Origin: a virus | Taxonomy: Duplodnaviria; Heunggongvirae; Uroviricota; Caudoviricetes | DNA: 64,000 bases | IMG/VR virus record: IMGVR_UViG_3300021060_000024 | Location: 11,577-75,576 of that record | Reading direction: 5' to 3' (one strand) | In this document: positions 12,501 through 38,127 of the stretch, in pieces | How positions within the stretch are numbered: position 1 is the stretch's first letter | Layout: each line of letters starts with the position of its first letter | Program-made: the position numbers and the translations under genes | Notes under the pieces: generated by a model | Told to the model about the DNA's origin: nothing | The model's input: only the letters and a program-made list of their open reading frames with translations | Databases searched by the model: none

Positions 12501-15306
12501 CCTGGCGGCCATCGGCCAGCCCGCGGGTGCGCAGGCCATGGCCGGGGTCGGGGCGGGCGCGAGCCAGTCCGTGCCCCAGGCGCTGGCCCCCTTCGAGCAG
12601 CTCCAGCCCGGCATCCAGCAGGCCGTGGCCAACGTGGCCACCTCCACGCTGGCCGCGGGCACGGACGCCATGGGCAACTTCTCGGCCGGGGCGATCCAGA
12701 ACTTCACGGCCGCCATGGCCCCCTTCGAGCAGCTCCAGCCCGGCATCACCGCGGCCACGCTGAACGCGGCGCTGGCGGCGACTCCCGGTGGCCAGCGCGC
12801 CATGGCGGGCTTCGGCGAGGGCGCGCAGGCGAACATCGCCAGCGCCCTGACCCCCTTCCAGCAGCTCAACCCCCAGCTCGCCGCGGTCGTCATGGCCACG
12901 GTGGACTCCATCGCGCCCATGGGCGGGGCGACGATGGTCAGCTTCGGCGCCGAGGCGCAGGCCAACCTGGCCGCCGCGCTGGCGCCCTACGAGGCCATCG
13001 CCCCGGGGATCACCGCGGCGCTGACCAACGCGATCGTGGCCAACACTGAGCAGGGCCGCCTGGGCATGGAGGCCTACGGCCAGGGCGTGGCCTCGGGCGC
13101 GCCCGCGGTCACCGGTGCCGTGCAGCAGGTCACCACGCAGGCTCAGGCCGCGCTCGACGCGGGCAACGCCATGTACAACCCCTCGGGGGCCAAGGGCGCC
13201 GCAGAGTACAACGCGGGGCTGGCCTCGGGCGCGGCGGGTGCGGGGGCTGCAGCGGCGACCGTCACCACCGCGGTGCAGGGCGCCCTGGACTCCGGCTCGG
13301 CCATGTACAACCCCTCGGGCGCCAAGGGCGCCGCGGAGTACAATGCGGGCCTGACCACCGGTGGCGCCGGTGCCCACGCTGCGGCCATCTCGGTGACCGA
13401 CCAGGCGCGCATGGGCTTCATCGCTGGCGGCACCCTGACCGCTGAGGGCCTGGCCTCGGGCACGAGCTACGGCACCGGCATGACCGGCGCCAGTGGCGCA
13501 GTGAGTGCGGCGGCGGCGACGCTGCCCGCGGCGGCGCGCACCTCCTTCGGTGGCGGCGGCGACTTCACCCCTGAGGGTGCGCAGATCCCGACCAGCATGG
13601 CTGCGGGCATCAGCGCGGGCGTGGCCTCGGTGCAGGGCGCCATGATGCTGATCTCCAACGCCATCAGCGCGCAGATCGTGAACGCCCAGCTCCAGGGCAC
13701 CGACATGGGCACGCGCTTCTCGAACTCGCTGACCACGTCGCTGACGGGCGCGAGCACCGCAGTGCAGGGCTCGATGATGCTCATCACCAACGCCATGAGC
13801 GCCGGGGCGATCCAGGCCAGCACCGCTGGCACTGCGGTGGGGCAGAACTTCACCCAGGGCCTGACCACGAGCCTGACTGGCGCTGCCACCGCGGTGCAGG
13901 GCTCGATGATGATGATCACCAACGCGATGTCGGCTGGGGCGGTCCAGGCCTCGGTCGCGGGCACCGCGGTGGGTACCAACTTCACCCAGGGCCTGACCAC
14001 GAGCCTGACCGGCGCGGCCACCGCGGTGCAGGGCTCGATGATGATGGTGACCAACGCCATGAGTGCCGCGGCGGTTCCCGCCTCGGTCGCGGGCACGGCC
14101 ATCGGCACCAACTTCACCACCGGGCTCACCACGGGCCTGACGGCGGCCACGACCGCCACGACCACCGCCATGGCCTCGATCACCGCGGCCATGCAGACCG
14201 GCCTGGCTGGGGCGCAGGCGGCCGTGACGGCCGCCATGGCGGCGATGACGGCGGCCTTCACCACCGGCTTCACCGGCATGACCACCGCGGCCACCACGGC
14301 CATGGCGGCCATCGGCACGGCGATCACCGCGGGGCTGGCCACGGCGCAGGCGGCCGTGGCAGCGGCAGTCGCTGCCATGACGGCGGTCTTCACCACCGGC
14401 TTCGCGGCCATGCAGGCGGCGGTCACCGCGGCCATCACGGCCATCGGTGCCGCGATCACCGCAGGCATGGCGGCGGCCACCGCGGCTGTGACGGCGGCCG
14501 TGACGGCCATGCAGACCGCCTTCACCGCGGGCTTCACCGCGATCACCGCCGCGGTGACGCAGTCGATCACGGCGATCGTCCAGGCGATCACCCAGGGCAT
14601 GACCACCGCCCTGCAGGCCGTGACCACCAGCGTGCAGGCGATGGTGCAGGCCTTCACCAGCGGCTTCGCCCAGGCGCAGGCCGCGGTGCAGTCGGCCGTG
14701 GCGGGCATGGTGGCCGCGATCCAGTCGGGCATGAACCAGGCGCTCGCGGCGGTCAACAGCTTCGTGAACGCGGCCGTGGCGGCTCTGAACGGCATGGGCG
14801 CGCGCTTCCGGGCCGCGGGCGCGGCCGCAGGTGCAGACCTGGCCGCGGGCCTGCAGTCCCAGGTCGGTGCAGTCCAGGCCGCCTCGGCGGCGCTGGCGGC
14901 CGCGGCGGCCGCGCCGATGCCGGGCTCCCCGGCCAAGGTCGGGCCGCTGTCGGGCAACGGCTGGACGCGCATCCGTGGTGAGCACTTCGGTGAGGATCTG
15001 ACCGCGGGCCTGCTCTCCCAGGTGCGCGACGTGCGCGGGGCCTCGGGCGCGCTGGCCAGTGCGGCCAGCCGCGCGCTGGGCTCGGACATCGCTGGCGGCC
15101 TGTCGCTGTCGGGCTCGGGCTCGCTGGGCACGGCCAAGACGCTCTCGGGCTCGCTGTCGGGCAGCCGTGGTGGGATCACGATCAACGTGAGCGCCGACGC
15201 GGTCAAGGTGACCACGACCGGCGACGCCGCCAAGGCTGACTTCCGTGACGCGGGCAACGAGCTGGCGCACATCCTGAACGCCGCGCTCCGGCGCCGGACC
15301 TCGTGA
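9571..15306 (+). CDS. tape measure protein (1911 aa)
   Basis: Coiled-coil N-terminal region, transmembrane segments (GIAVSGLGAALIPLGAVAVGSVGALGAAF) and long Ala/Thr/Gly tandem repeats. Position after G/GT. Confidence 0.8.
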   Translation: MPTVAELEIDLDARDNATAQLLAVNRLLEQFDGRDADANLGVDGVGQVLADIQAANQAAQSFADQDVRKEIEVENERALRALERVRAEAATLADNKMRLEVEVANAKALADLAAVEAAAAALADQVSMDVDIDDAAAMAKLAGLQRAVNAIDGNIRVDADTSAARAQIDAVIDSITDRKATVKMLADIADVEQKVAQVDALTSRLRDQVVRFDGDDAGVRATVAAVEAMVRDLKANVIFEGDTTNVEQAVALANGLLQQYATQQAEAKLDADADAARGAIAMAIADLQAFDGRVATAQIRADVDAAGIAQAQALLDSIPKEVRSRITADIGDLVAGVAASKAALASLPEEINIRVDTRNLSDLADKARYAGGQIGVLGIAVSGLGAALIPLGAVAVGSVGALGAAFTVAGGAATVFGFAAVSALGPVADAVEQIRQGEQQYKEAVTDPAKEAALLKIQMAYNALSTEQRAAVEGVLAYQNAWQGLVTSIQPQIFQATATVLQTLTSLFQQMSPAITGVANEVVSLANSAAAALGNPVWQTFINNMNNLAGPVFGALVRGLGNVVTGIIGLVNAFTPMSVGFVQGFEQMTAAFATWSAGLANNTGFQNFINYIQQNMPRVREFIADAVQAIVDFVQATAPLGSTVLDAVNRVLEAFSRLQEVNPQLAAVVASVALLTPAVLGVAGAVAPVISLFITMAGAAGELGGALGIAAGGFTGTTTSASGFAGVMTTVGTAVRTAGGLLQSTLGILTLFGGGFITAIAESQRFRDTIVDGFQSIGTAFSGLGTAFAGLFSALGEMVGAFNDVSEAVVTLGGSWGQFFGPMVTIAAESASAVIEILTSIVEAFSNVFSGLAAAANRDWQGVWDALNDDAPRQAIDRALQNVKNVLKAPSQDYSEYGKRSMDEVGQGFDAGAGLVGGQMPNHASMLAQAFGSNLTGFDTAGQQAMTAVGTGAAAGVPGAIAPFTGLGTQASGALTGLAAIGQPAGAQAMAGVGAGASQSVPQALAPFEQLQPGIQQAVANVATSTLAAGTDAMGNFSAGAIQNFTAAMAPFEQLQPGITAATLNAALAATPGGQRAMAGFGEGAQANIASALTPFQQLNPQLAAVVMATVDSIAPMGGATMVSFGAEAQANLAAALAPYEAIAPGITAALTNAIVANTEQGRLGMEAYGQGVASGAPAVTGAVQQVTTQAQAALDAGNAMYNPSGAKGAAEYNAGLASGAAGAGAAAATVTTAVQGALDSGSAMYNPSGAKGAAEYNAGLTTGGAGAHAAAISVTDQARMGFIAGGTLTAEGLASGTSYGTGMTGASGAVSAAAATLPAAARTSFGGGGDFTPEGAQIPTSMAAGISAGVASVQGAMMLISNAISAQIVNAQLQGTDMGTRFSNSLTTSLTGASTAVQGSMMLITNAMSAGAIQASTAGTAVGQNFTQGLTTSLTGAATAVQGSMMMITNAMSAGAVQASVAGTAVGTNFTQGLTTSLTGAATAVQGSMMMVTNAMSAAAVPASVAGTAIGTNFTTGLTTGLTAATTATTTAMASITAAMQTGLAGAQAAVTAAMAAMTAAFTTGFTGMTTAATTAMAAIGTAITAGLATAQAAVAAAVAAMTAVFTTGFAAMQAAVTAAITAIGAAITAGMAAATAAVTAAVTAMQTAFTAGFTAITAAVTQSITAIVQAITQGMTTALQAVTTSVQAMVQAFTSGFAQAQAAVQSAVAGMVAAIQSGMNQALAAVNSFVNAAVAALNGMGARFRAAGAAAGADLAAGLQSQVGAVQAASAALAAAAAAPMPGSPAKVGPLSGNGWTRIRGEHFGEDLTAGLLSQVRDVRGASGALASAASRALGSDIAGGLSLSGSGSLGTAKTLSGSLSGSRGGITINVSADAVKVTTTGDAAKADFRDAGNELAHILNAALRRRTS
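13720..14115 (+). repeat. three tandem ~132-nt coding repeats inside the tape measure gene
   Basis: Repeated peptide LTTSLTGA(A/S)TAVQGSMM(L/M)(I/V)TNAMSAGA(V/I)QAS(V/T)AGTAVG(T/Q)NFTQG. A looser AAMTAAFTTGF... array follows to about 14700. Confidence 0.5.
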
Positions 15307-22424: not shown

Positions 22425-22670
22425 ATGAGCACCGACGACCCCAAGACCATCCCGACCCCGGTCAGCCCCAAGGTCTACTCCAGCACCGGCGCGGGTGCGG
22501 CGCTGCTGGCCCTGGGCTTCATCCTGCGCTACTACGGCCTGGACGTGCCCGACGCCGTCATCGGGGCCGTGGCCGTGATCGGCACGTTCGCCGCGGGCTA
22601 CATCACCCCCGACCGCCTGCGCGAGATCGGGGCCGTCTTCCAGCGCGGCCGCGGCGAGCACCGCGCGTGA
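22425..22670 (+). CDS. holin (2 TM, 81 aa)
   Basis: Helices GAGAALLALGFILRYYG and AVIGAVAVIGTFAAGYI. Lies immediately after the endolysin. Confidence 0.6.
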   Translation: MSTDDPKTIPTPVSPKVYSSTGAGAALLALGFILRYYGLDVPDAVIGAVAVIGTFAAGYITPDRLREIGAVFQRGRGEHRA

Positions 22671-22975
22671 TCACCCTGCTGGGTCAGCCTGCCGAGTGGA
22701 TGGATCGCGCAGCCTGCGCGGACCTGCGCACGAACATGTTCCCCTCGGTGCGCGACCCGGCAGGGCAGGCCGCGGCCAAGGCCGTCTGCAGGGGCTGCCC
22801 GGTGGAGGCCGAGTGTCGTGAGCTCGGCCTGGGCCAGGACAAGCAGGGCCGCGCCGAGGAGCGCTGGGGGGTCTGGGGCGGCCAGAACGGACCCCAGCGC
22901 GGGCGCACCGCGGCACGCCGCGCGAAGCACCCCACGAGGCGTTCCAAGATCATGCCCCCCACCCCCGAGGCATAA
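22667..22975 (+). CDS. WhiB-family [4Fe-4S] transcription factor
   Basis: Four Cys in AACADL...AVCRGCPVEAECRELGL, plus GVWGG and a basic tail. GTGA overlap with the holin. Confidence 0.7.
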   Translation: MITLLGQPAEWMDRAACADLRTNMFPSVRDPAGQAAAKAVCRGCPVEAECRELGLGQDKQGRAEERWGVWGGQNGPQRGRTAARRAKHPTRRSKIMPPTPEA

Positions 22976-22976
22976 C

Positions 22977-23070
22977 CGCAGGTCAGAGCGTTCTGGGGGG
23001 CACGGGGGCAGGGGCGTACACCCTCTGTCGCGCGCGTATGCAGGGGAAAGGGTGTAAACCCGTGCCCCCT
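22977..23070. repeat. structured ~94-bp element R1 (second copy at 46658..46752)
   Basis: 82-bp core is identical to 46658-46739 except for one C/T. Nested hairpins GGGGGCACGGG / CCCGTGCCCCC and GTACACCCT / AGGGTGTAA. Confidence 0.55.
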
Positions 23071-23140
23071 CGCCCCCTCAACCACTGCTTGAGGGTTGCG
23101 AGTCCACCACCCCGACGGCCTCCAGATCTACGCTCTGGCC

Positions 23141-24505
23141 ATGGGCCGACACGCCACCACCCCTCGTCCGCGAGGTCGTCTGCGCTCGCGTCACTGGGGC
23201 GTCCTGATCGGCACCCTGGCCGTGGTCGGCCTGGGTGCCACCGCAGGCCTGGCTGCCACCGGCGGCCTGCCCGGGGTGCGCTCGACGTCGGAGACTCCGG
23301 CCGCGGGCGGCAAGTACGTCACCACCGTCGAGGACGGCAAGCTCACCCGGCTGGAGTTCGTCCCGGACGGGTCCACCGCGGCCCCCAGCGCCACGCTGAG
23401 CCCCTCGGCCACGGCCACCGGCACTCCGAGTGCTTCGGCCTCCGCAAGCGCCTCAGCGTCCAGCGCAGCCCCCTCGGCGACCACCGCCGCCTCGGCGGCC
23501 CCGACCGGCAAGCCCCCGGCGGCCACGTCTGCGGCCCCCAGCGCCACGCAGAGCCCCTCGCGCAGCGCCAGCAGCACTCCGGCACCCCCGGCCACCTCCA
23601 GCCCCGCAGCGACGACCACAGCCCCTCCCGCCGTGGGCGCGGGCGACTGGCTCTCGGGCGTGGCCGGGACCGGCGACACCGACGGGCGCTTCGGCACCTG
23701 GCGCGGCACGCCGGTGGAGATCGTGGGCACCTGGGCCGACGCCGACGAGGCCAACCAGCGCCGCATCTACACCGTCACCGGCGGCTCGGGGCGCTTCGCC
23801 GGCCCGATCGACGTCGGGGTCGGCGCCCTGGTGCGCGGGGAGACCTGGGCCGCCGCGGCGCGCGGGGCCAACGACGCCCGCTGGCGGGAGTCCCTGACGG
23901 TGATGCGCGACGCGCGCGCGGGCAAGGGCACCACCTACATCCGCTTCGCCCACGAGATGAACGGCAACTGGTACCCCTGGGCCGTCAACGCCTCCAACCG
24001 GGCCGACTTCATCACCGCCTGGAAGCGCTACCGCGCGCTGCAGCGGGAGATCTTCCCCCAGGCCAAGCTCGTGTTCAGCGTCAACCGCGAGTCCGTGGGC
24101 TCGGGCATCGACTGGCGCACCACGTTCCCCGGGCCCGGCCAGGTCGACGTCATGAGCGTGGACTACTACAACTTCGCCGGGGTTTCCACGGCCGCGGAGT
24201 GGCGCAGCGAGATCGAGCGCACCGACCGCTTCGGGGCCCCGATCGGCCTGGAGCAGCACCGGCGCTTCGCGGCCTCGGTGGGCCTGCCGCTGGCGATCTC
24301 GGAGTGGTCCGGGCGCGCCTCCGAGGGCGATGACCCGGAGTTCATGACCCAGATGAACGCCTTCTTGCGCACCAACGGCGGCTCGGGGCCGGGCCAGATG
24401 CTCTACGAGATCGTCTTCAACATCGGCGGCTACGAGGGCAACTACCAGCTCTTCCCCACCACCAGCCAGCCCGCGGCCGCGGCACGCTACCGCGATGTCT
24501 TCTGA
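23141..24505 (+). CDS. membrane-anchored/secreted GH26-like glycoside hydrolase with Ser/Thr/Ala/Pro linker
   Basis: Signal anchor (VLIGTLAVVGLGATAGLAATG), low-complexity linker, YIRFAHEMNGNWYPW (GH26 acid motif) and LPLAISEWSG (nucleophile-like motif). Confidence 0.55.
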   Translation: MGRHATTPRPRGRLRSRHWGVLIGTLAVVGLGATAGLAATGGLPGVRSTSETPAAGGKYVTTVEDGKLTRLEFVPDGSTAAPSATLSPSATATGTPSASASASASASSAAPSATTAASAAPTGKPPAATSAAPSATQSPSRSASSTPAPPATSSPAATTTAPPAVGAGDWLSGVAGTGDTDGRFGTWRGTPVEIVGTWADADEANQRRIYTVTGGSGRFAGPIDVGVGALVRGETWAAAARGANDARWRESLTVMRDARAGKGTTYIRFAHEMNGNWYPWAVNASNRADFITAWKRYRALQREIFPQAKLVFSVNRESVGSGIDWRTTFPGPGQVDVMSVDYYNFAGVSTAAEWRSEIERTDRFGAPIGLEQHRRFAASVGLPLAISEWSGRASEGDDPEFMTQMNAFLRTNGGSGPGQMLYEIVFNIGGYEGNYQLFPTTSQPAAAARYRDVF

Positions 24506-24680
24506 GTCCTGCCCCACGCCGTTCAAGGCGGTCTACCCGACCAAGTTCGCCGCGCGGCGCGCGATCCAGAGCGCGCGCCACCGCGGCCCGGCCGCGGGCC
24601 AGGCGGGCAAGGTCGCGCCGTATGAGTGCGAGTGCGGGCACTGGCACGTCGGGCACCGCAAGGAGCGCCCGCGGCGGTAG
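24495..24680 (+). CDS. small zinc-ribbon-like protein (61 aa)
   Basis: YECECGHWHVGH motif. Overlaps the 3' end of the GH26 gene. Confidence 0.3.
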   Translation: MSSESCPTPFKAVYPTKFAARRAIQSARHRGPAAGQAGKVAPYECECGHWHVGHRKERPRR

Positions 24681-24830
24681 CCTGGCCGGATGGCTATCAC
24701 CACCTCCGTCCCCCTGCAGGTCCAGGCTGGCGAGGACGCGGACTGGCTCGACGTCGCCGCGGCCTGCAAGCTCGACGCCGACGGCAACGTCGACCCCGAG
24801 TGCGAGTCCTGCCAGTAGCGGTCGCTCTGG

Positions 24831-25016
24831 TCAGACCTCGTCGTGGGTCAGCACCTCGCCCCAGGGCTTCGTGATGACCTCGTTCTCCGCTGTGCGGAGA
24901 CGCGCCTTCTTCCGGTCGCCGCCGATGACCAGGGCCGTTCGCCTCTCGGTGCGGCTGCGGTAGTCGGGCCACCAGTAGTCGACGCGCTCGCCTCGCTGTC
25001 GCTCCACGTCTGCCAC
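24831..25016 (-). CDS. hypothetical protein (61 aa)
   Basis: Track ORF. First gene at the distal end of the leftward operon. Confidence 0.3.
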   Translation of the reverse strand: MADVERQRGERVDYWWPDYRSRTERRTALVIGGDRKKARLRTAENEVITKPWGEVLTHDEV

Positions 25017-25026
25017 TACTCCTCGC

Positions 25027-25224
25027 TCATGTCAGGCCGTCCATCAGCACGGCCGCGGTCACACACAGCACTGCGCCGATGAAGACGCCCACTGCGCCCC
25101 AGTGACGCTGGTCGGCACCGCCCGCGATCGTGGCGATGCCGACCAGCTCGATGAACGCGCCGAGGATGAACAGGCACACCAGGGCTGCGTTCACGGGGGT
25201 CTCCAGTCGATGTCTACCTGCCAT
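25027..25224 (-). CDS. small membrane protein (2 TM)
   Basis: Internal ATG of track ORF 25027..25356. Helices LVCLFILGAFIELVGIATIAG and GAVGVFIGAVLCVTAAVL. Confidence 0.35.
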   Translation of the reverse strand: MAGRHRLETPVNAALVCLFILGAFIELVGIATIAGGADQRHWGAVGVFIGAVLCVTAAVLMDGLT

Positions 25225-25399
25225 GGCGGCGCAGGCGGCGTCCCAGATCCTCCACCCAGTCCAGGTCGCGGGGGAAGCCCAGCTCGTCGGTGACGTCCTC
25301 GGCGCGCTCGACCTGGGTGACCATGTCCACCTCGCGGTAGTCGGGCCACTCCCCACGGTCCTCGCGCCCCGCGCGCAGCGTGAGCTGCAGCACGAACAT
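25214..25399 (-). CDS. hypothetical protein (61 aa)
   Basis: MFVLQ... start overlaps the upstream stop (TGATG coupling). Confidence 0.3.
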   Translation of the reverse strand: MFVLQLTLRAGREDRGEWPDYREVDMVTQVERAEDVTDELGFPRDLDWVEDLGRRLRRHGR

Positions 25400-25674
25400 C
25401 AGCGCGGCTCGACCGAGCACGAGGCGATCAGGACCGCCTCGACCTCGGGCATGAGCTCGGGCATCTTCCCGGCGGGGAACATGCCCTCGTACTGGGCACG
25501 GGTGGCGAAGACCTTGGTCAGCTTCGTCACGCGCCGGTAGGAGCCGATCCGCAGCCCCTCGGTGATCCGCTTCATAGCCGTGGGCAGCGCGGCCTGCTCG
25601 AAGGGGGTGCGGTCCTCGGCCTCGATGGCCGCGATCGGCACCGGCACGGCGACGGCCATGATCAGACTGCTCAC
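25399..25674 (-). CDS. hypothetical protein (91 aa)
   Basis: Track ORF with a coupled neighbour. Confidence 0.4.
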   Translation of the reverse strand: MSSLIMAVAVPVPIAAIEAEDRTPFEQAALPTAMKRITEGLRIGSYRRVTKLTKVFATRAQYEGMFPAGKMPELMPEVEAVLIASCSVEPR

Positions 25675-26030
25675 AGGATCTCCTCGTCAGTGACGCTGAT
25701 GACCTCACCGAGCACGGCGGGGCCCTGGTCGCGCGCCTGAGCAGGCTCGCGGTGGATCGGATAGATGATGAACCCCTCATCCTCGCCGTCGTCCATGACG
25801 TGGCGGTAACCGAAGGCGCCACCCTCGCGCGCCATCTGGCGCTCACGCTCGGTCTGCTCGATCTTGTCGCTCAGCCAGGAGCGCTTGGCCGCCGCCGCCA
25901 GCATGTCCATCAAGATCTCCCGGCTCTCGAAGAGCTCGTAGTCCCTCACCGTGGACCCTGGCGGTCGTTGAGCCGCTTCTCGATCAGGTCGGCCCAGACG
26001 TAGACGGCCAGGGCCGTGATCGAGATCCAC
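25671..26030 (-). CDS. hypothetical protein (up to 119 aa; true start may be internal)
   Basis: The C-terminal part (MDMLAAAAKRSWLSDKIEQTERERQ...) looks genuine. The N-terminal part is Arg-rich shadow frame. Confidence 0.35.
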   Translation of the reverse strand: MDLDHGPGRLRLGRPDREAAQRPPGSTVRDYELFESREILMDMLAAAAKRSWLSDKIEQTERERQMAREGGAFGYRHVMDDGEDEGFIIYPIHREPAQARDQGPAVLGEVISVTDEEIL

Positions 26031-26051
26031 TGCGCCACCTCGTTCATGACC

Positions 26052-26537
26052 TCAGCCCCCCAGGTGCAGCACGTTGAGCATCGGCGCGACCTGGCCGCCG
26101 TGGGTGGCCTCGACGCTGGAGTTGAACCAGAAGGCTGCCGCCAGCCCCGAGCCCTTGAGCAGGCGCTGGCACCCCGGACAGGGCGCGTCGGTGATGGCCA
26201 TCCACCCGCCGCGGCGCCGGACGGGGTCGGAGTACATGATCGCGTTCTCCTCGGCATGGATGGCCACGCAGGGGTGGGCCACGCCGGGGCCGGTGTAGGC
26301 GCTGTCGGGCGCGAGGTCGGCGTGGGTCATCGACCCCCGCGGGCAGCCGGCCGCGGTCAGGCAGCCCGGCGCCTCGGGGGGTGCGCCGTTGTAGCCCACC
26401 GAGAGCACCCGGCGGTCCGCGTCCAGCACGACGGCGCCGACCCTGCGGCGGGTGCAGTCCGCGCGCATCGCCACGGCCGTGGCGATGCCGATGGCCCACT
26501 GCTCCCAGGAGGGCCGACTCGGCGTCTGGACGATCAT
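26052..26537 (-). CDS. dCMP/cytidine deaminase-family zinc enzyme
   Basis: HAEENAI plus PCPGCQRL zinc-binding motifs. Start MIVQTPS at codon 48 of the track ORF. Confidence 0.7.
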   Translation of the reverse strand: MIVQTPSRPSWEQWAIGIATAVAMRADCTRRRVGAVVLDADRRVLSVGYNGAPPEAPGCLTAAGCPRGSMTHADLAPDSAYTGPGVAHPCVAIHAEENAIMYSDPVRRRGGWMAITDAPCPGCQRLLKGSGLAAAFWFNSSVEATHGGQVAPMLNVLHLGG

Positions 26538-26719
26538 GCGCCCGTCACCGTCAGGTAGCCGACGAAGCTGGCGACGGCCACGCCGACGACGGCGAGCGCG
26601 AGCAGCTCCCAGCCACCCAGGCGACGCCAGGCCAGGACGGCCTGCGCCGCAACCAGCAGGAAGCAGACCACCAGGCACCAGCCCCAGACGATGGCCAGTG
26701 CGCCACCTGTCGCGATCAC
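26534..26719 (-). CDS. small membrane protein (2 TM, 61 aa)
   Basis: GTG start in a GTGA overlap with the JAB stop. Its stop is in an ATGA overlap with the deaminase start. Confidence 0.35.
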   Translation of the reverse strand: MIATGGALAIVWGWCLVVCFLLVAAQAVLAWRRLGGWELLALAVVGVAVASFVGYLTVTGA

Positions 26720-27156
26720 GAGGGGCTCCCGAAGCCCATGGGCACCTCGGCCGCGCGCTCGCCGGGCTCGACCCACCAGGCGCGGTGGCGCTGGGACTCG
26801 TACTTGAGCGTGGCGCCCGAGGAGATCAGCATCAGCGGCACCTCGTCGTTGGCGTGGTCGGTCTCGCTCGGGATGGCCGCGCCGCTGGGGTGGGAGTGCC
26901 ACCAGGCCTGGATGTCGCGCCCGGCCGCGCGCTGGCGCTCCAGCACCGGCTGGAGCTGCTCGATGGTCACCTCGCAGCGCTTGTGAGCCTCGTGCGCCGC
27001 GGCCTCGTTGAACAGCGGCTCGATGATCCAGTGCTGGGGGTCCTCGTCGGGGGCGCCGAACAGGATGGCCACCCCCTCCTCCTCGTCAGCCTCCACCAGC
27101 AGCGCGTTCAGCAGCCTCAGGTGGGTCTTGGTCAGCGTCAGGCCCTCGATCACCAC
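26716..27156 (-). CDS. JAB/MPN (JAMM) metalloprotease domain protein
   Basis: JAMM motif HSHPSGAAIPSETD with an upstream Glu (ADEEEG). Confidence 0.6.
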   Translation of the reverse strand: MVIEGLTLTKTHLRLLNALLVEADEEEGVAILFGAPDEDPQHWIIEPLFNEAAAHEAHKRCEVTIEQLQPVLERQRAAGRDIQAWWHSHPSGAAIPSETDHANDEVPLMLISSGATLKYESQRHRAWWVEPGERAAEVPMGFGSPS

Positions 27157-29537
27157 GAACCTCCCGGGATCATCGGGTCACCGCTGCGCAGCAGCATGAC
27201 CCGCAGGTTGACGACCTGGCGGTCGCCCTTGACCTTCTTGGTGGGGTAGCCGATGCGCGCCAGGCGCTCGGTGAGCTCGGGGGCGGACATGCGCCCCATG
27301 CCGTTCTCCTCGCACCAGCGCTTGAAGGACTGGTACACGACCGAGGACTTCTCGGTGTGGCCCTCCTGGGTGGTGCAGCACTCCTTGGCCCAGGCGCGCA
27401 CGCGGTCGATGTCCTCCACGAAGGCGTCGAAGGCCTCGGCCACCGCGCCCTTGCGCTCGAAGCTGCGCCGCTCCAGCAGGCGCCGCAGCGCGACCACGGC
27501 CTTGGCCGCGATGCCGGGGATCTCACTCTCCAGCCGGTCGGAGAGGTTGGCGATCATGTCGGTCTCGGCGATCTTGCGGTTGAAGGGCACCACGATCCAG
27601 CGACGCGTGTAGCCGTCGGAGGTGTCCGAGGAGCCGGGGATCTTGTTGGCCGAGAAGATCGGGGTGGCCCAGGAGACGAAGTCGAAGGGCTGGCCGTACT
27701 TGTGCTGGGCGCGGTACTGGTCCTCGCCGGTGAGCATCTTGAAGCTCGCCGTGGACTCCTGGTAGGTGGCGTCGATGTCGCCCGCGATGTTGGCGATCTT
27801 GCCGAACAGGCCCGAGGGCGCGAAGCGGTCCCCGTTGAGGTCGTCCAGGGAGATCGAGGCGATGTTGGACCGGCCCAGCATCGTGGACAGCACCCGCAGC
27901 ACGGTCCCCTTGCCGTTGCCGCCGCCGCCGACGAACAGGATCGCCTTCTGCAGGGGGTTGCCCGAATAGAGCATGTACCCCAGCACCTCCCAGATCAGCT
28001 CCACGGTCTCCGGCTCAGCGATGCTGGCCAGGAAGGCGTCGAACTGGGGGCAGTCGTCCTCGGGGCGCCAGTCGTGGGGGAACTGGATGGTGGTGCGCGC
28101 CTCGGGGCTGTGCGCGCTGAGCACGCCGGTCTTCCAGTCCAGCAGCCCGTTGCGCCAGTTCATGATCGCGGGGGTGGGGTCGAAGTCCAGCCGCGGCACG
28201 CGGTGGCGGGTGTAGGCCTCCACGTTGGTCACGATGGAGCCCCGGAAGCGGCCCTGCAGCAGGCGCGTGGCGCGCCCCTCGACCACGTCCGGCTCGCAGC
28301 GCCACACCCCCGCGCGGTAGGCCCAGAAGTTGTGGTCGCGCCCGAAGGCCAGCGGGCCCAGGCGCAGCACGTCGTCGGAGAGCATGCGCACGTCCACCCC
28401 GGCGGCCTTGTCGAGGAAGTAGTCCCCCGGGTCGCGCACCGGCCCCAGCGTGACGCTGTCGACGGCCACCTCCGGCTCGGGGGCGCTGGCGCTGGTGACC
28501 TCCATCTCCGCGTTCGGGGCCCGCGGGGCTTCGGCGCGCACCAGGGCCTCGATGGCGGCCACGGGGTCGGCGGGGTCCAGCACGCCCGAGCCCGGCGGGG
28601 CCACCAGGGAGTCGTCGTTGATCGCCTGCCCGATGGCCCAGGCGACCACGCCGGAGAACTCACTCGCGGGGTGGCGCCCGGGGGTGGGCCGCTCGGCCAT
28701 GGCCTCCATGAACATGCCCTGCAGGGTGTCGATCGCCAGCGCCGCGGGGTAGAAGCCCTTGCGGGCCTCGCGCATGGCCCAGCAGGCCGCCTCCACCAGC
28801 GCCTCGTGGCGGCTGGCGCCGTCCTTGACCGCGCGGGCGAAGCGCTCCAGCACCGGGTCCAGCGCGCCGAGCTTGTAGTTGTCGACGTGCTCGGCCTTGA
28901 AGGCGGCGATCATGTCGTCGCTGGCGGGGGCGTCGCGCTCGGCGCCCTGGGGCAACAGCGCGTCCACGTAGGACGGCAGCAGCGGCACCTGGCCGTCGCT
29001 GTACCAGTGGTACTCGCCCGCGTCGTCGGGGTGGGGGCTGGGCTCGGCCATGACGAAGCCGTTCAGCCCACGCACCTCCCCCCAGGTGATGCGCCGCTCC
29101 CCGGGCTCCTGGCCGGAGTCGTAGAGCTGGCCGCGGCCGTTGCCCAGCACGCGCCCCGGCGGCACCCGGAAGATCAGGTGGCCGCGGTTGAGCTGGCCAC
29201 GGCGGGTCTGCTGGAAGGGCGGGGCCTCCTCGACCGCGGCGCGCTGCAGCGCCTCGGGCAGCACCTCGGGGTGGTCGATGTCGAAGATGACCAGGCCGCT
29301 GCGGCCAGCGTGGATGCCGACGCCGTGGTCGGTCCCGGCCCAGAGGGCCACGATCTCCTGCACGTCGCGGGTGGACTTCATCTGCCAGCCGTCGCCCAGC
29401 ACCGAGCCGGGGTGCTTGGTGTGCGACTTCACCGGCACGACGTAGAGCCCCGCCTTGGCGTACTTGATCGCCGCCGACATGGCGTCGTCCTCGGCGGTGA
29501 TCTCGGGGATGTAGATCGGGGTGGTGTCAGTGGTCAC
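27150..29537 (-). CDS. bifunctional primase-polymerase (AEP) fused to D5/P4-type SF3 helicase
   Basis: Prim-pol N-terminus (GLYVVPVKSHTKHP...LVIFDIDHPE). Walker A ILFVGGGGNGKGT. 795 aa. Confidence 0.75.
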   Translation of the reverse strand: MTTDTTPIYIPEITAEDDAMSAAIKYAKAGLYVVPVKSHTKHPGSVLGDGWQMKSTRDVQEIVALWAGTDHGVGIHAGRSGLVIFDIDHPEVLPEALQRAAVEEAPPFQQTRRGQLNRGHLIFRVPPGRVLGNGRGQLYDSGQEPGERRITWGEVRGLNGFVMAEPSPHPDDAGEYHWYSDGQVPLLPSYVDALLPQGAERDAPASDDMIAAFKAEHVDNYKLGALDPVLERFARAVKDGASRHEALVEAACWAMREARKGFYPAALAIDTLQGMFMEAMAERPTPGRHPASEFSGVVAWAIGQAINDDSLVAPPGSGVLDPADPVAAIEALVRAEAPRAPNAEMEVTSASAPEPEVAVDSVTLGPVRDPGDYFLDKAAGVDVRMLSDDVLRLGPLAFGRDHNFWAYRAGVWRCEPDVVEGRATRLLQGRFRGSIVTNVEAYTRHRVPRLDFDPTPAIMNWRNGLLDWKTGVLSAHSPEARTTIQFPHDWRPEDDCPQFDAFLASIAEPETVELIWEVLGYMLYSGNPLQKAILFVGGGGNGKGTVLRVLSTMLGRSNIASISLDDLNGDRFAPSGLFGKIANIAGDIDATYQESTASFKMLTGEDQYRAQHKYGQPFDFVSWATPIFSANKIPGSSDTSDGYTRRWIVVPFNRKIAETDMIANLSDRLESEIPGIAAKAVVALRRLLERRSFERKGAVAEAFDAFVEDIDRVRAWAKECCTTQEGHTEKSSVVYQSFKRWCEENGMGRMSAPELTERLARIGYPTKKVKGDRQVVNLRVMLLRSGDPMIPGGSW

Positions 29538-30118
29538 GCGAGGGCCTCCGGGCGGTACAGGGCGAGGATCTCCAACGCGAACGCCACCTTGTCCTCGACG
29601 CGCTGGCCCGCGGGCTGCGCGGTGTTCCAGAGCTCCAGGTTCTCCAGGCGGTTGTCGGCGCGGTCGCCGTTGATGTGGTGGACGTTCTCGTTCGCGGTCA
29701 GCATCCTGCCGAGCGCCTCGGACATCACGAGCCGGTGCTCAGCGACGTAGCCGTTCCGCTTGGCCATGGGGCTGTCGGGTCGCAGGACCAGCACGTAGCC
29801 GTCAGCCGTCACATGGCGCCTCGTGCCACGGTTCGGGACCTGCGAGATCGCCGGGTCAGTGTGCCGGCGCTTCCAGATCTGATAGTGGTTGTAGCACCAC
29901 TCGCGCGCGTACATGCCTGCTGAACACGTTTCGATCTTGCAGATCTTGTCAGTGCGGTTTCGCCGTGCGTAGGAGGCGTGGGTGTTGCAGAGGCGCACCG
30001 TTCCTCCGCGACGCTTCGACCTCTTGGTGCAGCCTTCAACCTTGCACGTCGGCCAGTCGACCTTGACTGCGCTAGCCTCTTCCATAGCGACCTCATCTCG
30101 CTCATCGCCCCCGGCCAC
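29534..30118 (-). CDS. HNH endonuclease
   Basis: NGYVAEHRLVMSEALGRMLTANENVHHINGDRADNRLENL, with upstream CxxC...C Cys cluster. Confidence 0.65.
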   Translation of the reverse strand: MAGGDERDEVAMEEASAVKVDWPTCKVEGCTKRSKRRGGTVRLCNTHASYARRNRTDKICKIETCSAGMYAREWCYNHYQIWKRRHTDPAISQVPNRGTRRHVTADGYVLVLRPDSPMAKRNGYVAEHRLVMSEALGRMLTANENVHHINGDRADNRLENLELWNTAQPAGQRVEDKVAFALEILALYRPEALA

Positions 30119-30163
30119 GTTCGCAGCGTGGCGCGGGGGCTCCTTCGTTGCGGGACCCTGACC

Positions 30164-30454
30164 CTAGCGCGAGCGGAGCGCGTCCAGGCCGGTCTCGACC
30201 ACGTCCTCCAGGGTCTGCCCGGGGGGCAGCTCGCCGTTGCTCAGGCCGAAGATCTTGTCCAGGGCCTGACGCACGACCTCGGCCCGCGAGATCTTGGCGG
30301 CGGCGCTGGCGGACTCCACCGCGGCGCGCTGGGTGGGAGTGCCCACCCACGGCATCTGCTTGGTCAGTCTCGCTTCGACGGCCACGGCGGCCTCCTCTCG
30401 GGTCGATGTCCAGGTCACAGTACGTGACTCGATGACCAGTTGACAACGCGTCAT
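30164..30454 (-). CDS. ribbon-helix-helix-like DNA-binding protein
   Basis: C-terminal QRAAVESASAAAKISRAEVVRQALDKIFGL. First gene of the leftward operon. TTGACA-like -35 in the 52-bp divergent intergenic region. Confidence 0.4.
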   Translation of the reverse strand: MTRCQLVIESRTVTWTSTREEAAVAVEARLTKQMPWVGTPTQRAAVESASAAAKISRAEVVRQALDKIFGLSNGELPPGQTLEDVVETGLDALRSR

Positions 30455-30506: not shown

Positions 30507-30761
30507 ATGAGCCTGGTCGTGAAGGTCTCGATCAACGACGCGCCGACGGTGGCCGTGCTGGCCGCCACGCGCATGGCCGGCACCACCGACCCCGACAGCA
30601 TCGGCCAGTACAGCGTCAACGCCTGGCACGTCCCCCTGGGCGAGCCCGGCTTCACCCCGGTGCTGGAGAGCGCGTCGGTCGAGCACCGCTACGGCGACGG
30701 CGCCCTGGAGCTCGTCAAGAAGATGATCGCGGCGCTGCCGCAGAAGGAGGAGCAGTCGTGA
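30507..30761 (+). CDS. hypothetical protein (84 aa)
   Basis: GGAGGAAG RBS. First gene of the rightward operon. Confidence 0.4.
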   Translation: MSLVVKVSINDAPTVAVLAATRMAGTTDPDSIGQYSVNAWHVPLGEPGFTPVLESASVEHRYGDGALELVKKMIAALPQKEEQS

Positions 30762-31183
30762 AACTGATCAGTGGACGCCGCTACCGCGTCGTCGAGACCT
30801 ACGAGTCGGGCACCGTGCTGACCTACGAGGGCACGATCGTGAACAGCGCCGACACCCAGGACCACGGCGCCACCGTCGAGTTCCGCGACGCGGGCACCGC
30901 CTGGGTCGACGACCGCGAGGACTGCAAGGTCACCGTCGAGCCGCTGCGCGACCTGCTGCCGACCGCGCTCGGCTCGCTGATCCGCTACTACCCCTCGACC
31001 CGCGAGCACCCCGACGTCAACGTGATCCAGATGCGCGTGCCGACCACGCGCCAGGCGGTCACCGACGAGGGTCAGCCCGTGCGCCGGGTCGACCTGAACT
31101 GGGTTACGGCCATGTCCGGCCTGCGGGTCACCGACCCGCTGGACGACTTCGACGTCATCTTCGACGCGGGGGCCGAGCAGTGA
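30758..31183 (+). CDS. hypothetical protein (141 aa)
   Basis: GTG in a GTGA overlap. Confidence 0.4.
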   Translation: MKLISGRRYRVVETYESGTVLTYEGTIVNSADTQDHGATVEFRDAGTAWVDDREDCKVTVEPLRDLLPTALGSLIRYYPSTREHPDVNVIQMRVPTTRQAVTDEGQPVRRVDLNWVTAMSGLRVTDPLDDFDVIFDAGAEQ

Positions 31184-31482
31184 GCGACTCGATCGCCCAG
31201 GCCGTCGAGGCCCTGTACGGCCCCATCATCGTCGGCACTGCGCCGGTGGAGATGCTGACCGAGCCCATCGACGAGCGCGTGAAGCAGTTCGACGTCGTGG
31301 TCATCCTCTCCGCTCAGCTCGGTCCGGTGCCGGAGTTGGGCTTCGTGCTGGACTTCGAGGAGGGCCAGGCCCTGGTGGGCATCATGAACGACCCCGAGGC
31401 CAGGCTGCTCCCGATCGACGACCTCGTCGTCATCGCCTCCACCAACATCGCTCAGCAGGTGCGCGATGCTCGCGGAGACTGA
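31180..31482 (+). CDS. hypothetical protein (100 aa)
   Basis: GTGA overlap. Confidence 0.4.
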   Translation: MSDSIAQAVEALYGPIIVGTAPVEMLTEPIDERVKQFDVVVILSAQLGPVPELGFVLDFEEGQALVGIMNDPEARLLPIDDLVVIASTNIAQQVRDARGD

Positions 31483-32008
31483 GCCCGTCGGCACCGTCTC
31501 GATGGGCTGGTCGATGATCAAGGACGGCGACGTCGTCCTGGGTGCGCGTGACGGCGCCCAGTGGCAGGTCGACGGCACCCCCACCGACCAGCCCGACGGC
31601 TCGCGGCTGGTCAACCTGGTGAAGCTGGACGAGCAGGCCGTGCGCCACAAGAACATCCGGGTGCGCGGGGTGGTGCGTCGCGTGGCCACCGGCGCCCAGA
31701 TGCGCGAGCGCGCCCTGGCCATCGTGCAGGTCAAGCTCGGCGGGGAGGTGGTGGCCGTGGCCGATGACGGCGACGAGCGCGGCCACGCCTGCCCGGCCGT
31801 GTTCACCGACGCGGGCCACCTGGCCGCGCACCTGCTGCTCTTCCACGCCACCACCGCTACCAAGAACGTGGACGGCAGCGAGTCGACCTACAGCCAGGTC
31901 GACGGCGAGCACCGCGCGCTGCACCACGACATCGCCGCGGGCAACCCCAAGCCCGGAACCGTCACCCACTGGCACGACCCGAACTTCGACAAGAGGAGCT
32001 TCAGCTGA
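31466..32008 (+). CDS. hypothetical protein (180 aa)
   Basis: Track ORF with a 17-nt overlap. Confidence 0.4.
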   Translation: MLAETEPVGTVSMGWSMIKDGDVVLGARDGAQWQVDGTPTDQPDGSRLVNLVKLDEQAVRHKNIRVRGVVRRVATGAQMRERALAIVQVKLGGEVVAVADDGDERGHACPAVFTDAGHLAAHLLLFHATTATKNVDGSESTYSQVDGEHRALHHDIAAGNPKPGTVTHWHDPNFDKRSFS

Positions 32009-32469
32009 TGGCCACCACGACCACGATCAACGTGCTGGACGAGATCGCCCAGGAGCGCGAGAACCAGGACAGGAAGTGGGGCGAGCAGAACCACCCCAAC
32101 GGCACCGGCGAGGACTACGACGACAAGGCCGCTCAGGCCAAGACCGAGTGCGATCGGGCCACCTGGAACGAGCACCTGACCTGGGACCTGATCCTGCTGG
32201 AGGAGGTCTACGAGGCCCTGGCCGAGTCCGACCCGGCGCTGCTGCGCGCTGAGCTCGTGCAGGTGGCCGCTGTGGCCATCGCCTGGATCGAGAAGATCGA
32301 CCGTGACGAGCGCAGGGTGGCCCCCCTGGACATGCTGGCTGCCGCGCTGGCCGAGGCCGACGACGACGAGTTCGCCCAGTTCAACGACACCACCCAGAAC
32401 CTGCACCGCGAGAAGGCCCAGGCACTGCTGACGCGCATGGGCGCCGCCATCCCCACCGGAGGAAACTGA
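32008..32469 (+). CDS. hypothetical protein, possible MazG-like nucleotide pyrophosphohydrolase fold
   Basis: ATGA overlap. Motif ERENQDRKWGEQNHP (weak resemblance only). Confidence 0.35.
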   Translation: MATTTTINVLDEIAQERENQDRKWGEQNHPNGTGEDYDDKAAQAKTECDRATWNEHLTWDLILLEEVYEALAESDPALLRAELVQVAAVAIAWIEKIDRDERRVAPLDMLAAALAEADDDEFAQFNDTTQNLHREKAQALLTRMGAAIPTGGN

Positions 32470-32471
32470 TC

Positions 32472-32807
32472 ATGGACCACTACGACCGCAACCCCTACTA
32501 CCACCCCGAGCACCAGGGTGTGACGACCGTGGCGACGATCGACTGGCGTGAGCCCTGCTACGACTTCGACATGACCGTCGTGTGGCGCCGCGAGGACGGC
32601 ACCTACGCCATGGCGAGCGACTCGGGCTGCTCGCGCCCCTCCCCGTTCGAGAACACGGTCTTCGCCGACCTGCCGGTGATGACGCGCCAGGAGGTCATGG
32701 CGGCGCTGACCGCGGACTTCACCGAGCGCGCGGGCACCTACGGGCTGGACGAGTCGGGCAAGCGCTCGTACATGAGCGCGCTGGAGACGCTGGCGGTGGC
32801 CGCGTGA
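32472..32807 (+). CDS. hypothetical protein (111 aa)
   Basis: Track ORF. Confidence 0.4.
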   Translation: MDHYDRNPYYHPEHQGVTTVATIDWREPCYDFDMTVVWRREDGTYAMASDSGCSRPSPFENTVFADLPVMTRQEVMAALTADFTERAGTYGLDESGKRSYMSALETLAVAA

Positions 32808-33280
32808 GCAACGTCGAGATCCTGGCCGCCGAGCTGGCCGCGGCCGAGGGGCACTCCTGGGACGACCTGTCGGGAGAGGACCAGGAGTACTACGAGCAGC
32901 GCGGCCAGGCCGTGCTCGACCGGATGAAGGCGGGGCGCGCCCGCGGGGGCGACGACGAGCTGCAGGCGCGCCGGGTCGCGGTGCTCGCCAAGGCCTTCTC
33001 GGCGGGCAAGCCCATGGCCGCGGCCCTGCGCGAGTCCGAGCCGGACCTGGCGGCGAGCTACGTCCCCAACGCCGTCGCGCGCGCCTTCGAGTGGGACTAC
33101 GCCCACGACCGGGCGCTGGTGGGCGCGGGCTCGTGGGGACGCAAGGGCAACGAGGGGCTGCGCGTGGAGTGCAGGCTCACCACCCCCGATGGCCAGGTGG
33201 CCCGCTGGCGCTTCGCCACCCTGGCCGAGGCCTCGGAGTGGGTGCGCAGCCTGGATGGCCCCGAGGGCGGCTGGCTGTGA
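32804..33280 (+). CDS. hypothetical protein (158 aa)
   Basis: GTGA overlap. Confidence 0.4.
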   Translation: MSNVEILAAELAAAEGHSWDDLSGEDQEYYEQRGQAVLDRMKAGRARGGDDELQARRVAVLAKAFSAGKPMAAALRESEPDLAASYVPNAVARAFEWDYAHDRALVGAGSWGRKGNEGLRVECRLTTPDGQVARWRFATLAEASEWVRSLDGPEGGWL

Positions 33281-33546
33281 GCGACAACCTGCGCGAGCAC
33301 CTGCTGCGCGGCAAGGTCGATCGCTCCATTGAGCGGGCCATCGACGTCTTCTTGGAGGACGTCGACAAGCTCGTGACCTCCAAGGAGGCCACCGAGCAGG
33401 AGGTCACCGAGTTGCTCGCGGGCTGCTCCGACTTTCAGGACGCCTGGATCAACTACCTCGACATCACCGCCGAGGAGGCCGCCGCCGACGCCGAACGTGC
33501 AGGTCAGGCCGGGCTGTCCGACCCTCCTGGCACGGTGGGCGCATGA
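33277..33546 (+). CDS. hypothetical protein (89 aa)
   Basis: GTGA overlap. Its stop overlaps the exonuclease ATG. Confidence 0.35.
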   Translation: MSDNLREHLLRGKVDRSIERAIDVFLEDVDKLVTSKEATEQEVTELLAGCSDFQDAWINYLDITAEEAAADAERAGQAGLSDPPGTVGA

Positions 33547-34832: not shown

Positions 34833-35374
34833 AGATCAGCTACGGCCAGCTCGTGAGGGTGATCGCCGAGTCCGATGACAGGCCCAATCTCGTCGGCAAG
34901 GAGCTCTACGTGGACGAGATCGACCCCCCCGAGAGCAGGCTGCGCTTCTTCGTGGACAGCGACCCCAACCCGAACGACGTCAACGTCTCCAACGACAACG
35001 AGGACTACGGCTACGTCAGCGACGTCGAGCCGGTGATGCCCGAGCGGTTCGTCGACCGCGACCGCTACTTCGTGGACGGCATCAGGAAGTTCGCCCTGAT
35101 CGACGAGCCGGCCACCGTCGAGGCTGGCGAGCCCGACCTGCAGGCCAAGCTCGGCGCCGAGGCCGAGGCGGCCGTGCACGACCCCGTGGATCACCCCAGC
35201 CACTACACCAGCACCGCGGGGGTGGAGTGCATCGACGTGACCGAGCAGTTCAACTTCAACCGCGGCAACGCGATCAAGTACATCTGGCGCGCGGGCGGCA
35301 AGGGCGACGAGATCGAAGACCTGCGCAAGGCCGCCTGGTACATCAACCGCGAGATCGAGAGGATCTCGCGGTGA
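34829..35374 (+). CDS. DUF3310-domain protein
   Basis: C-terminal HPSHYTSTAGVECIDV...RGNAIKYIWRAGGKGDEIEDLRKAAWYINREIERI. Confidence 0.5.
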   Translation: MKISYGQLVRVIAESDDRPNLVGKELYVDEIDPPESRLRFFVDSDPNPNDVNVSNDNEDYGYVSDVEPVMPERFVDRDRYFVDGIRKFALIDEPATVEAGEPDLQAKLGAEAEAAVHDPVDHPSHYTSTAGVECIDVTEQFNFNRGNAIKYIWRAGGKGDEIEDLRKAAWYINREIERISR

Positions 35375-35565
35375 GCACGAAGTACCGCATGGAGGCGCGC
35401 CGCCCCGAGGTGCCGGACTTCCTGCTCACGCTGCGCATGGACTCCTGGGATGCGAGCCTGGACGCCGAGCACGAGCGGGCAATCGGCGCCATGGCCACCG
35501 GGCTGCAGCACGCCGGCTACACCACCGAGGTGACCGTCGAGACGACCACCGCGAGGCCGCTGTGA
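35371..35565 (+). CDS. hypothetical protein (64 aa)
   Basis: GTGA overlap. Confidence 0.3.
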   Translation: MSTKYRMEARRPEVPDFLLTLRMDSWDASLDAEHERAIGAMATGLQHAGYTTEVTVETTTARPL

Positions 35566-36348: not shown

Positions 36349-36406
36349 CAAGGCTTCATCCACGACTGATAGAGTTTCACCACCCCACACGGAAGGACGC
36401 ATCATC

Positions 36407-38073: not shown

Positions 38074-38127
38074 GACCAGCGGTGCCCCGCTTTCCTCGCC
38101 AGGGGGAGGCGGGGCACACTGCTGTGC

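Follow-up and report, generated by a model that had tools for sequence, protein, structure and literature searches.

In the 64,000-nt stretch of phage DNA analysed here (the window), two copies of an 82-nt block, R1 and R2, lie on either side of a 23.7-kb segment, which raises the question of what these copies do for the phage. The original prediction had offered three answers, namely a structured 5' leader or regulatory RNA, a terminator shared by both boundaries, or sites of recombination. The near-identity on which it built was borne out, as R1 and R2 are direct repeats agreeing at 81 of 82 positions, the single C/T difference being at 22993 vs 46674. A repeat search pairs the extended intervals 22953-23076 and 46634-46757 at 89% identity, and the predicted decay into related sequence was likewise recovered, with 15/24 identical positions in the left flank and 14/18 in the right flank before identity falls to background (22-26%) further out; the homology fades across about 20 nt per side. 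A core 21-mer was observed twice, as compared with 0.09 expected occurrences in shuffles, and the repeat pair is real and not due to chance. It is also not an assembly artefact, because the contigs of an independent sample (SRR7162643), assembled by Logan with k=31, end at 23023 and 46704 and start at 46710, i.e. they break about 30 nt inside the identical stretch, as a true repeat predicts. Tandem 132-nt repeats within the 1911-aa tape-measure gene (12588-14156) break Logan contigs as well.

The window has a GC content of 71% and is 100% identical to the MEGAHIT contig k141_661892 of ENA ERZ27250785 (75,580 bp), the ends of which overlap by 141 nt, giving by coordinate arithmetic a circular assembly of 75,439 bp. 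Its terminase is at most 51% identical to those of Streptomyces, Gordonia and Arthrobacter phages, and a BLAST search of GenBank phages returned no nucleotide match for 25 kb of the window and no near relative. To judge from its genome, the source phage is an actinobacteriophage without close cultured relatives.

The coordinates of the repeats and of the genes around them are compiled in Table 1. The calls of a WhiB gene beside R1 and of an HNH gene beside R2 hold, whereas the GH26 and HicA-like calls are weak, the former with a Pfam E of 0.005 that misses the cut-off and without a PHROG match, the latter with E=0.034; a search with the HicA-like protein returned the query alone, and an endolysin-based locus search in viral contigs yielded nothing. 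The repeats had been described as bracketing the early region. Indeed, they flank 23.7 kb, which encode a prim-pol/D5-type helicase, the RecE-like exonuclease, endonuclease VII, a deaminase and DUF6197 genes, but non-structural genes also fill the 12 kb that follow R2 on its right. The five DUF6197 paralogs of the leftward operon adjoining R2 (41422-46309), four adjacent and one apart, are also visible as a nucleotide repeat family. A second free-standing endonuclease gene, of the HNH_3 type, lies directly upstream of the prim-pol gene (29534-29998). Past the window end, at about 69.7-74.4 kb of the circle (L003, 19034-21749), a 1577-aa ORF without a Pfam match separates the head genes from the first of the tail genes.

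Table 1 Features of the R1 and R2 loci and of the surrounding transcription units. Positions are those of the window.
Feature	Position	Strand	Remarks
R1, 82-nt block	22977-23058	+	81/82 identical to R2
R2, 82-nt block	46658-46739	+	81/82 identical to R1
Left decayed flank of R1	22953-22976	+	Last codons and stop of whiB (ATGCCCCCCACCCCCGAGGCATAA); 15/24 identical to 46634-46657
Decayed whiB 3'-end relic at R2	46634-46657	+	GCATAA (Ala-stop) changed to GCATCG
R1 full imperfect palindrome	22996-23077	either	~82 nt, 29-32 pairs; covariance model 106 bits
R2 palindrome	46677-46758	either	Covariance model 97.7 bits; outer helix weakened
Second hairpin beside R2 (module A)	46595-46641	either	GGGGGGCACAG...CTGTGCCCCCC; covariance model E=0.8 only
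Small hairpin	23075-23095	+	CCCTCAA-N7-TTGAGGG, then TT; kept in L008, absent at R2
Predicted start downstream of R1	23129-23143	+	TACGCT, 6 nt, ATG; leaderless-type
Predicted rightward promoter at R2	46751-46789	+	TTGACC-18-TATCAT, 6 nt, ATG 46787
Predicted leftward start at R2	46576-46590	-	TATGCT, 6 nt, ATG 46578; without a good -35
Leaderless-type starts by TANNNT-6-ATG	46578 (-), 46787 (+), 58806 (+), 24690, 23141		23141 by direct reading
whiB	22667-22975	+	Pfam Whib E=1.6e-12; last gene of late structure-lysis operon
454-aa membrane-anchored protein	23141-24505	+	GH26 match weak; first gene of short rightward block
64-69 aa protein, phrog_2089	46384-46578	-	Faint HicA match only; first gene of DUF6197 operon
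Free-standing HNH endonuclease, C-terminal HTH	46787-47209	+	PHROGs E=4e-9; gene caller start 46769
RecE-like recombination exonuclease	33543-34832	+	phrog_434 E=7e-61, Pfam YqaJ; inside R1-R2 segment
Late operon	~58.8 kb through map origin to 22975	+	Terminase, portal, capsid, tail genes, endolysin, holin, whiB
Short block	23141-24818	+	454-aa protein and two small ORFs
Operon	24831-30385	-	Includes prim-pol/helicase
Operon	30507-40962	+	Includes RecE-like exonuclease and endonuclease VII
Operon	40934-46578	-	DUF6197 paralogs; 64-aa first gene
Block	46787-49582	+	Headed by HNH endonuclease
Operon	49969-~58200	-	

The nested-hairpin fold proposed for both copies was confirmed, although its dimensions had to be revised. 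The inner stem comprises 8 bp (TACACCCT/AGGGTGTA) instead of 9 bp, and the outer stem pairs in R1, but its 3' arm is located outside the 82-nt block and is degraded in R2 (GCCATGCCCCC, two mismatches). Moreover, a second outer tier, consisting of a second G-run and a second C-run, had been missed, so that the palindrome reaches beyond the right end of the block. It contains two G-run tiers, two C-run tiers, an inner helix of 8-10 bp and a centre of about 20-24 nt, the left arm of R1 reading GGGGGGCAC-GGGGGCAG-GGGCG-TACACCCT and the right arm AGGGTGTA-AACCC-GTGCCCCC-TCGCCCCC. The conserved unit additionally includes an 18-nt left extension (CGCAGGTCAGAGCGTTCT) outside the palindrome. In RNA folding, the 84-nt hairpin of R1 forms 29 pairs with -56.9 kcal/mol on the + strand and 32 pairs with -60.0 kcal/mol on the - strand. 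The R2 fold is weaker (-47.3 kcal/mol on +, -43.8 kcal/mol on -), because substitutions in the 3' arm outside the identical block (GCCATG..., TTGACCC) weaken its outer helix. On 99-nt stretches, the z-scores were -3.3 (R1 +), -5.7 (R1 -), -2.2 (R2 +) and -3.6 (R2 -), and none of the shuffles folded as well as R1. The - strand folds better in R1 and in the related phage L008, owing to G-U pairs, and the + strand in R2. We dropped this strand bias as evidence, since it is reversed in R2 and vanishes with DNA parameters.

The motif GGGGGCA has 18 sites in the window, which is below expectation overall, and 10 of these are found at the R1 and R2 loci, arranged in ++- modules. Module A has the G5CA arm motif in common with the R2 hairpin, and its 3' arm is the relic of the whiB 3' end described below. 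Coding sequence was rejected as an explanation for R1 and R2; the ORFs that cross the two copies do not share a frame on the - strand, and those on the + strand overlap whiB.

Two relatives of the phage were found, L007 and L008, both from Logan assemblies. Their WhiB proteins are 77% (L007) and 84% (L008) identical to that of the source phage, the L007 endolysin is 76% identical, and in both an element directly follows whiB. In L008 it has the same orientation and starts 2 nt past the whiB stop. Its hairpin is 71% identical to R1, with unchanged outer helices and a diverged inner helix and loop, and folds with -48 and -57 kcal/mol (z-scores -5.1 and -6.4). The covariation check suggested by the original prediction showed that pairing is kept: among the pairs that differ from R1, three are changed on both sides, all of them in the inner helix, and eight carry one-sided compatible changes, but a few are broken, and the set comprises three full copies and one partial copy. 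Since L008 keeps the fold at 71% identity, the hairpin is selected as a structure. The small hairpin to the right of R1 is kept in L008 as a 9-bp stem followed by TTT, and the L008 contig reads through the element unbroken. The L007 core, by contrast, is inverted relative to whiB, i.e. its + strand reads TTTACACCCTTTCCCCTGCGTACG, which corresponds to the - strand of the window, and it scores 30 bits with the covariance model in the inverted vs 11 bits in the other orientation; the contig terminates inside the element, as at a repeat. Because of this inversion, the orientation of the element is taken to be irrelevant.

Beyond these phages, searches for related sequences were negative. Rfam gave no match at gathering thresholds and, when E-values as high as 10 were allowed, only generic hairpins of miRNA-precursor type (14-25 bits vs thresholds of 70-100), and no tRNA genes were found. 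The covariance model detected only R1 and R2 in the window plus a further 8.4 kb, which together make up all but about 3 kb of the circle. No copy matching the element patterns was present in 185,579 species genomes, nor in the viral contig or metagenome contig collections, which are weak negatives, as contig L018 (see below) carries the pattern yet went unmatched, so that the collections are incomplete. BLASTN with the 82-mer, proposed as a check, revealed no related copy among GenBank phages, only a 34-nt chance match. Eight hairpins with G5CAC arms from unrelated bacteria, one of which overlaps a tRNA end, were rejected as relatives; they have no inner helix, score 20-37 bits and are generic G/C hairpins. 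Arrays of GGGGGCAC units followed by their complement occur in MAGs of Thermoanaerobaculia and Gemmatimonadales (L010, L012, L015, L016) and in Streptomyces hawaiiensis (L013). These arrays form hairpins, and their G-tracts with 3-nt spacers also fit a G-quadruplex pattern; they are tied to the phage element by the arm motif alone. From these results we conclude that the R1/R2 element is a real, conserved and structured repeat, which represents a new sequence family.

The position of the element relative to transcription was assessed next to the gene starts. Leaderless transcripts, which actinobacteria commonly produce, are marked by a TANNNT hexamer followed by 6 nt and ATG. In the window, only five credible gene starts show this arrangement, three of which flank R1 and R2; the start at 58806 belongs to the first gene of the late operon, and the one at 24690 is probably due to chance. 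R1 begins 2 nt past the whiB stop, where some 24 kb of rightward genes for structure and lysis come to an end, and is intergenic between that stop (22975) and the ATG at 23141. R2 is located within the 209-bp gap of two divergent starts, ATG 46578 (-) and ATG 46787 (+). The rightward promoter predicted there matches the sigma-70 consensus at 10 of 12 positions (46751-46780), the best match in 13 kb, with 0-0.5 expected, and its -35 hexamer starts just after the first C-run of the hairpin and occupies the place of the second. The putative promoter on the R1 side is less certain, because it consists of the -10-like TACGCT alone, without a -35, and the homologous gene of L008 has a Shine-Dalgarno leader. 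As the downstream gene starts are of the leaderless type, both R1 and R2 would be located upstream of the predicted transcription starts. These leaderless starts, together with the inverted copy in L007, disfavour a structured 5' leader or regulatory RNA, a reading for which Rfam likewise offered no family.

The second of the predicted roles, a shared terminator, fits R1 best, as R1 starts 2 nt past whiB at the end of the late operon, a position kept in three phages, but it is at odds with the missing U-tract and with the position of R2 between divergent promoters. The GC-rich hairpin of a canonical intrinsic terminator is present and its U-tract of 7-9 nt is absent: none follows the hairpin on either strand, and a T-run scan gave 0 sites at R1 and R2. 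Mycobacterial RNA polymerase was shown to need a U-tract for termination (PMC3993855). R1 stands where the late operon must end, behind its last gene, as does the element in both relatives, and R2 is not at such a 3' end; since the predicted promoters diverge at R2, there would be no sense transcript to stop, only read-through or antisense transcription. Another hairpin (49580-49640) is found where the HNH block and the leftward early operon converge, the only place at which the position of a terminator is unambiguous. It is near-perfect, with about 25 pairs (z=-4.7), and is probably a bidirectional terminator. It too has no proper U-tract, only a weak T-rich tail on the - strand, so that U-less terminator hairpins seem to be a habit of the source phage.

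Elsewhere in the window, the RecE-side and DUF6197-side operons converge with an overlap of 29 nt between their last genes (40934-40962), and a 20-bp hairpin on the - strand lies inside coding sequence just beyond the end of the leftward operon (40842-40885). The idea of a closed transcription domain, in which no other hairpin would stand between the internal operons and R1/R2, holds only partly, given this hairpin and another one on the - strand (24745-24795). Upstream of the small leftward early genes (52280-58094), a unit of about 73 nt is present seven times. On the - strand, this unit comprises the palindrome TGTGACnnAGGTCACA, a G/C hairpin with a TTGACA-like -35 in its loop and a conserved TAACGT -10; these units look like repeated operator-promoter cassettes and are nearer to the multi-copy PeSLs discussed below than R1/R2 are. 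An AT-rich island (58340-58530, GC 0.37-0.38) with dense short direct and inverted repeats (ATCACTACATGTAGTGAT, CATGTGATGCATAC), located in the divergent gap ahead of the first late gene at 58806, stands out more strongly in its fold than any other part of the window once composition is corrected for, and is a candidate replication origin or packaging site.

The history of the two copies can be read from their flanks. The left flank of R2 aligns with the last whiB codons, ATGCCCCCC being changed to GTGCCCCCC, and R2 is thus a derived copy of the whiB spacer. By this comparison, the ancestral copy is the one directly after whiB, and R2 is a partial, secondary duplicate of that spacer. Core and flanks have since diverged to different extents, with 81/82 identical positions (99%) in the core vs 29/42 (69%) in the flanks (Fisher p=2e-6); if the core matched at the rate seen in the flanks, 81/82 would arise with a probability of 2e-12. 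Because the L008 ortholog is only 71% identical, gene conversion fits the identity of the R1/R2 cores better than purifying selection alone, and the data point to gene conversion.

A further trace of exchange is a JGI contig of 1794 bp (L018; 3300017680, Ga0182233_1009723), in which the left flank of R2 is joined to the right flank of R1. Its first ~810 nt correspond to the R2 left side and have two strain markers in common with an ordinary R2 contig (L019), the final 915 nt agree with the right side of R1 at every position, and the crossover falls inside a 64-nt identical stretch of the core. This is exactly the junction expected of a looped-out 23.7-kb circle or a tandem duplication, the kind of product that the original prediction proposed to look for by PCR, and it is supportive, not decisive; L018 is one contig of 1.8 kb, the assembly it comes from is fragmented, and it may instead be a chimera that arose where the graph had low coverage. 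RecE-type exonucleases act on homologies of about 50 bp, and it is plausible that the RecE-like exonuclease of the phage drives recombination between such short repeats. The third predicted role, recombination sites, is therefore supported indirectly, by the concerted evolution of the cores and by the L018 junction, but is qualified by the chimera alternative for the latter. Attachment sites of a prophage or an integrative element were rejected, as no integrase or recombinase domain is encoded among the genes at 23-47 kb and no tRNA is present; R1 and R2 are also unlike att sites because their flank homology decays gradually, without an abrupt end.

Taken together, we favour the reading that the element is a terminator or insulator hairpin beside promoters, which doubles as a recombination substrate in the manner of PeSL cassettes, and we put the probability of this reading at roughly 45%. 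R1 and R2 would be two copies of an intergenic boundary cassette, the core of which is a long hairpin formed by a G-run/C-run palindrome. The hairpin may act as a factor-independent stop or insulator for transcripts arriving from either direction and may protect transcript 3' ends. Separating transcription units and standing immediately upstream of putative leaderless sigma-70-type promoters, the element would follow the logic of a terminator-promoter cassette. The 82-nt direct repeats and the RecE-like exonuclease of the phage would allow R1 and R2 to recombine with each other, with gene conversion holding the core identical as the flanks drift, and crossing-over between R1 and R2 would loop out or duplicate the 23.7-kb replication and recombination segment.

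The decayed outer helix of R2 is a point against the terminator or insulator reading, as it fits a passenger copy. It is conceivable, if rather unlikely, that R1 alone is functional, as a terminator or 3'-end hairpin, and that R2 is a functionless by-product of recombination or of the insertion of an HNH cassette, in which about 125 nt of the whiB spacer were copied and the identity reflects a recent event or conversion. Besides the decayed helix, the relic of the whiB 3' end and the location of R2 next to a free-standing HNH endonuclease, between divergent promoters, would agree with such a history, as would the unbroken L008 contig, according to which L008 may have a single copy. However, the flanks are about 31% diverged and the core is not, which requires repeated conversion or selection and not a simple recent copy, and the L007 contig ends within the element as if two copies existed there also.

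We consider it unlikely that the palindrome acts at the DNA level as a protein-binding site, i.e. as an operator or upstream activating site controlling the adjacent leaderless promoters, bound by a phage or host regulator and possibly with the adjacent WhiB involved. The concentration of GGGGGCA sites in ++- modules at both loci, the R2 3' arm adjoining the -35 hexamer, the conservation of the outer-arm sequence across the relatives and the independence of orientation, which suits a symmetric site, would all be in line with protein binding. On the other hand, the compensatory changes in the inner helix keep pairing and not sequence, the spacing to the downstream start differs between R1 (~64 nt) and R2 (~29-37 nt), the occurrence of G5CAC-armed hairpins in unrelated bacteria indicates that the motif is not specific, and no candidate for the binding protein was found.

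That the element serves RNA processing or stability, e.g. as a long double-stranded hairpin that RNase III cleaves, or gives rise to a small stable RNA of its own from the - strand appears distinctly improbable. The near-continuous helix of about 29-32 pairs has the size of a substrate, the - strand RNA folds better for R1 and L008 (G-U pairs), and the sub-threshold Rfam matches are generic pre-miRNA-like hairpins only; but the strand preference is inconsistent (R2 folds better on +, and there is none with DNA parameters), neither a promoter nor a terminator frames a small RNA, the core has the opposite orientation in L007, and R2 precedes both predicted transcription starts. A phage-borne episome, in which the hairpin is an attachment-like site and L018 the junction of a circle or tandem duplication, could be imagined, but that the 23.7-kb segment regularly loops out via the 82-nt element as a self-replicating circle and then re-enters seems to us very improbable. 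Least credible is a mobile palindrome of MITE or REP type or a single-strand DNA signal, e.g. a priming or origin hairpin for the prim-pol, since against the palindromic, repeated nature of the element, its two orientations among the relatives and the prim-pol/D5-type helicase encoded by the phage stand the lack of a target-site duplication, the asymmetry of the conserved unit with its 18-nt extension, the mere two copies with none elsewhere in the scanned genome, the species genomes or the viral and metagenome collections, the absence of a transposase or RAYT from the phage and a location that is not beside the replication genes.

Returning to the boundary cassette, R1 and R2 very probably belong to a known kind of element, that is, phage intergenic terminator/promoter repeats that serve as recombination patches. 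PeSL (promoter-early stem-loop) cassettes of T4-type phages consist of a poly-G/poly-C stem-loop and a sigma-70 promoter within about 100 bp, and their recombination gives chimeric cassettes and mini-circles (Arbiol et al. 2010, PMC2839356; Comeau et al. 2014, PMC4122927). R1 and R2 resemble them in being intergenic, in forming a stable stem-loop from a G-tract and a subsequent C-tract (R1, -57 to -60 kcal/mol), and in being repeated in one genome. A counterpart to the PeSL recombination products would be the L018 junction, a possible chimera, with its crossover inside the element. The likeness in the promoter is partial, as a sigma-70-type promoter (10/12) is predicted at R2 and only the -10-like TACGCT without a -35 at R1. 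In contrast to PeSLs, to which they are unrelated in sequence, R1 and R2 form a much longer hairpin (~82 nt) and occur in a high-GC actinobacterial phage with predicted leaderless promoters. Their two copies are 23.7 kb apart and bracket a segment that includes replication genes, whereas PeSLs are many, flank small variable genes in hyperplastic regions and bracket single orphan genes.

Intrinsic bidirectional terminators, including the U-less 'I-shaped' form proposed for actinobacteria, resemble R1 in that a GC-rich hairpin directly follows an operon's last gene, folds on both strands and is indifferent to orientation. The function of U-less hairpins is disputed (PMC3993855). R1 and R2 differ from the usual terminators in lacking a U-tract and in a hairpin three to four times the usual length, and R2 would end no sense transcript. 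The RNase III sites of T7 are near-identical long hairpins between cistrons, all in sense orientation and inside transcripts. R1 and R2 are likewise near-identical long hairpins repeated between cistrons, but the core of L007 is inverted, and R2 precedes the predicted starts. REP/BIME and MITE-type repeats are intergenic imperfect palindromes of about 80-120 nt with arm motifs in alternating orientation, which also applies to the architecture of R1 and R2; these, however, have two copies, none in host-type genomes, no duplicated target and no cognate transposase.

The element breaks short-k-mer assemblies of the source phage group and may yield chimeric contigs. If the favoured reading is true, an uncultured actinophage would, like the T4-type phages, use one hairpin-plus-promoter spacer repeatedly to punctuate its genome, and this spacer would also provide a short stretch of homology by which whole modules may be exchanged, duplicated or lost. 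The two copies, the one large essential segment between them and the RecE-type exonuclease of the phage would then make up a testable case, and a mechanism of phage mosaicism known from T4-like myoviruses, which infect Gram-negative hosts, would extend to siphoviruses of high GC content.
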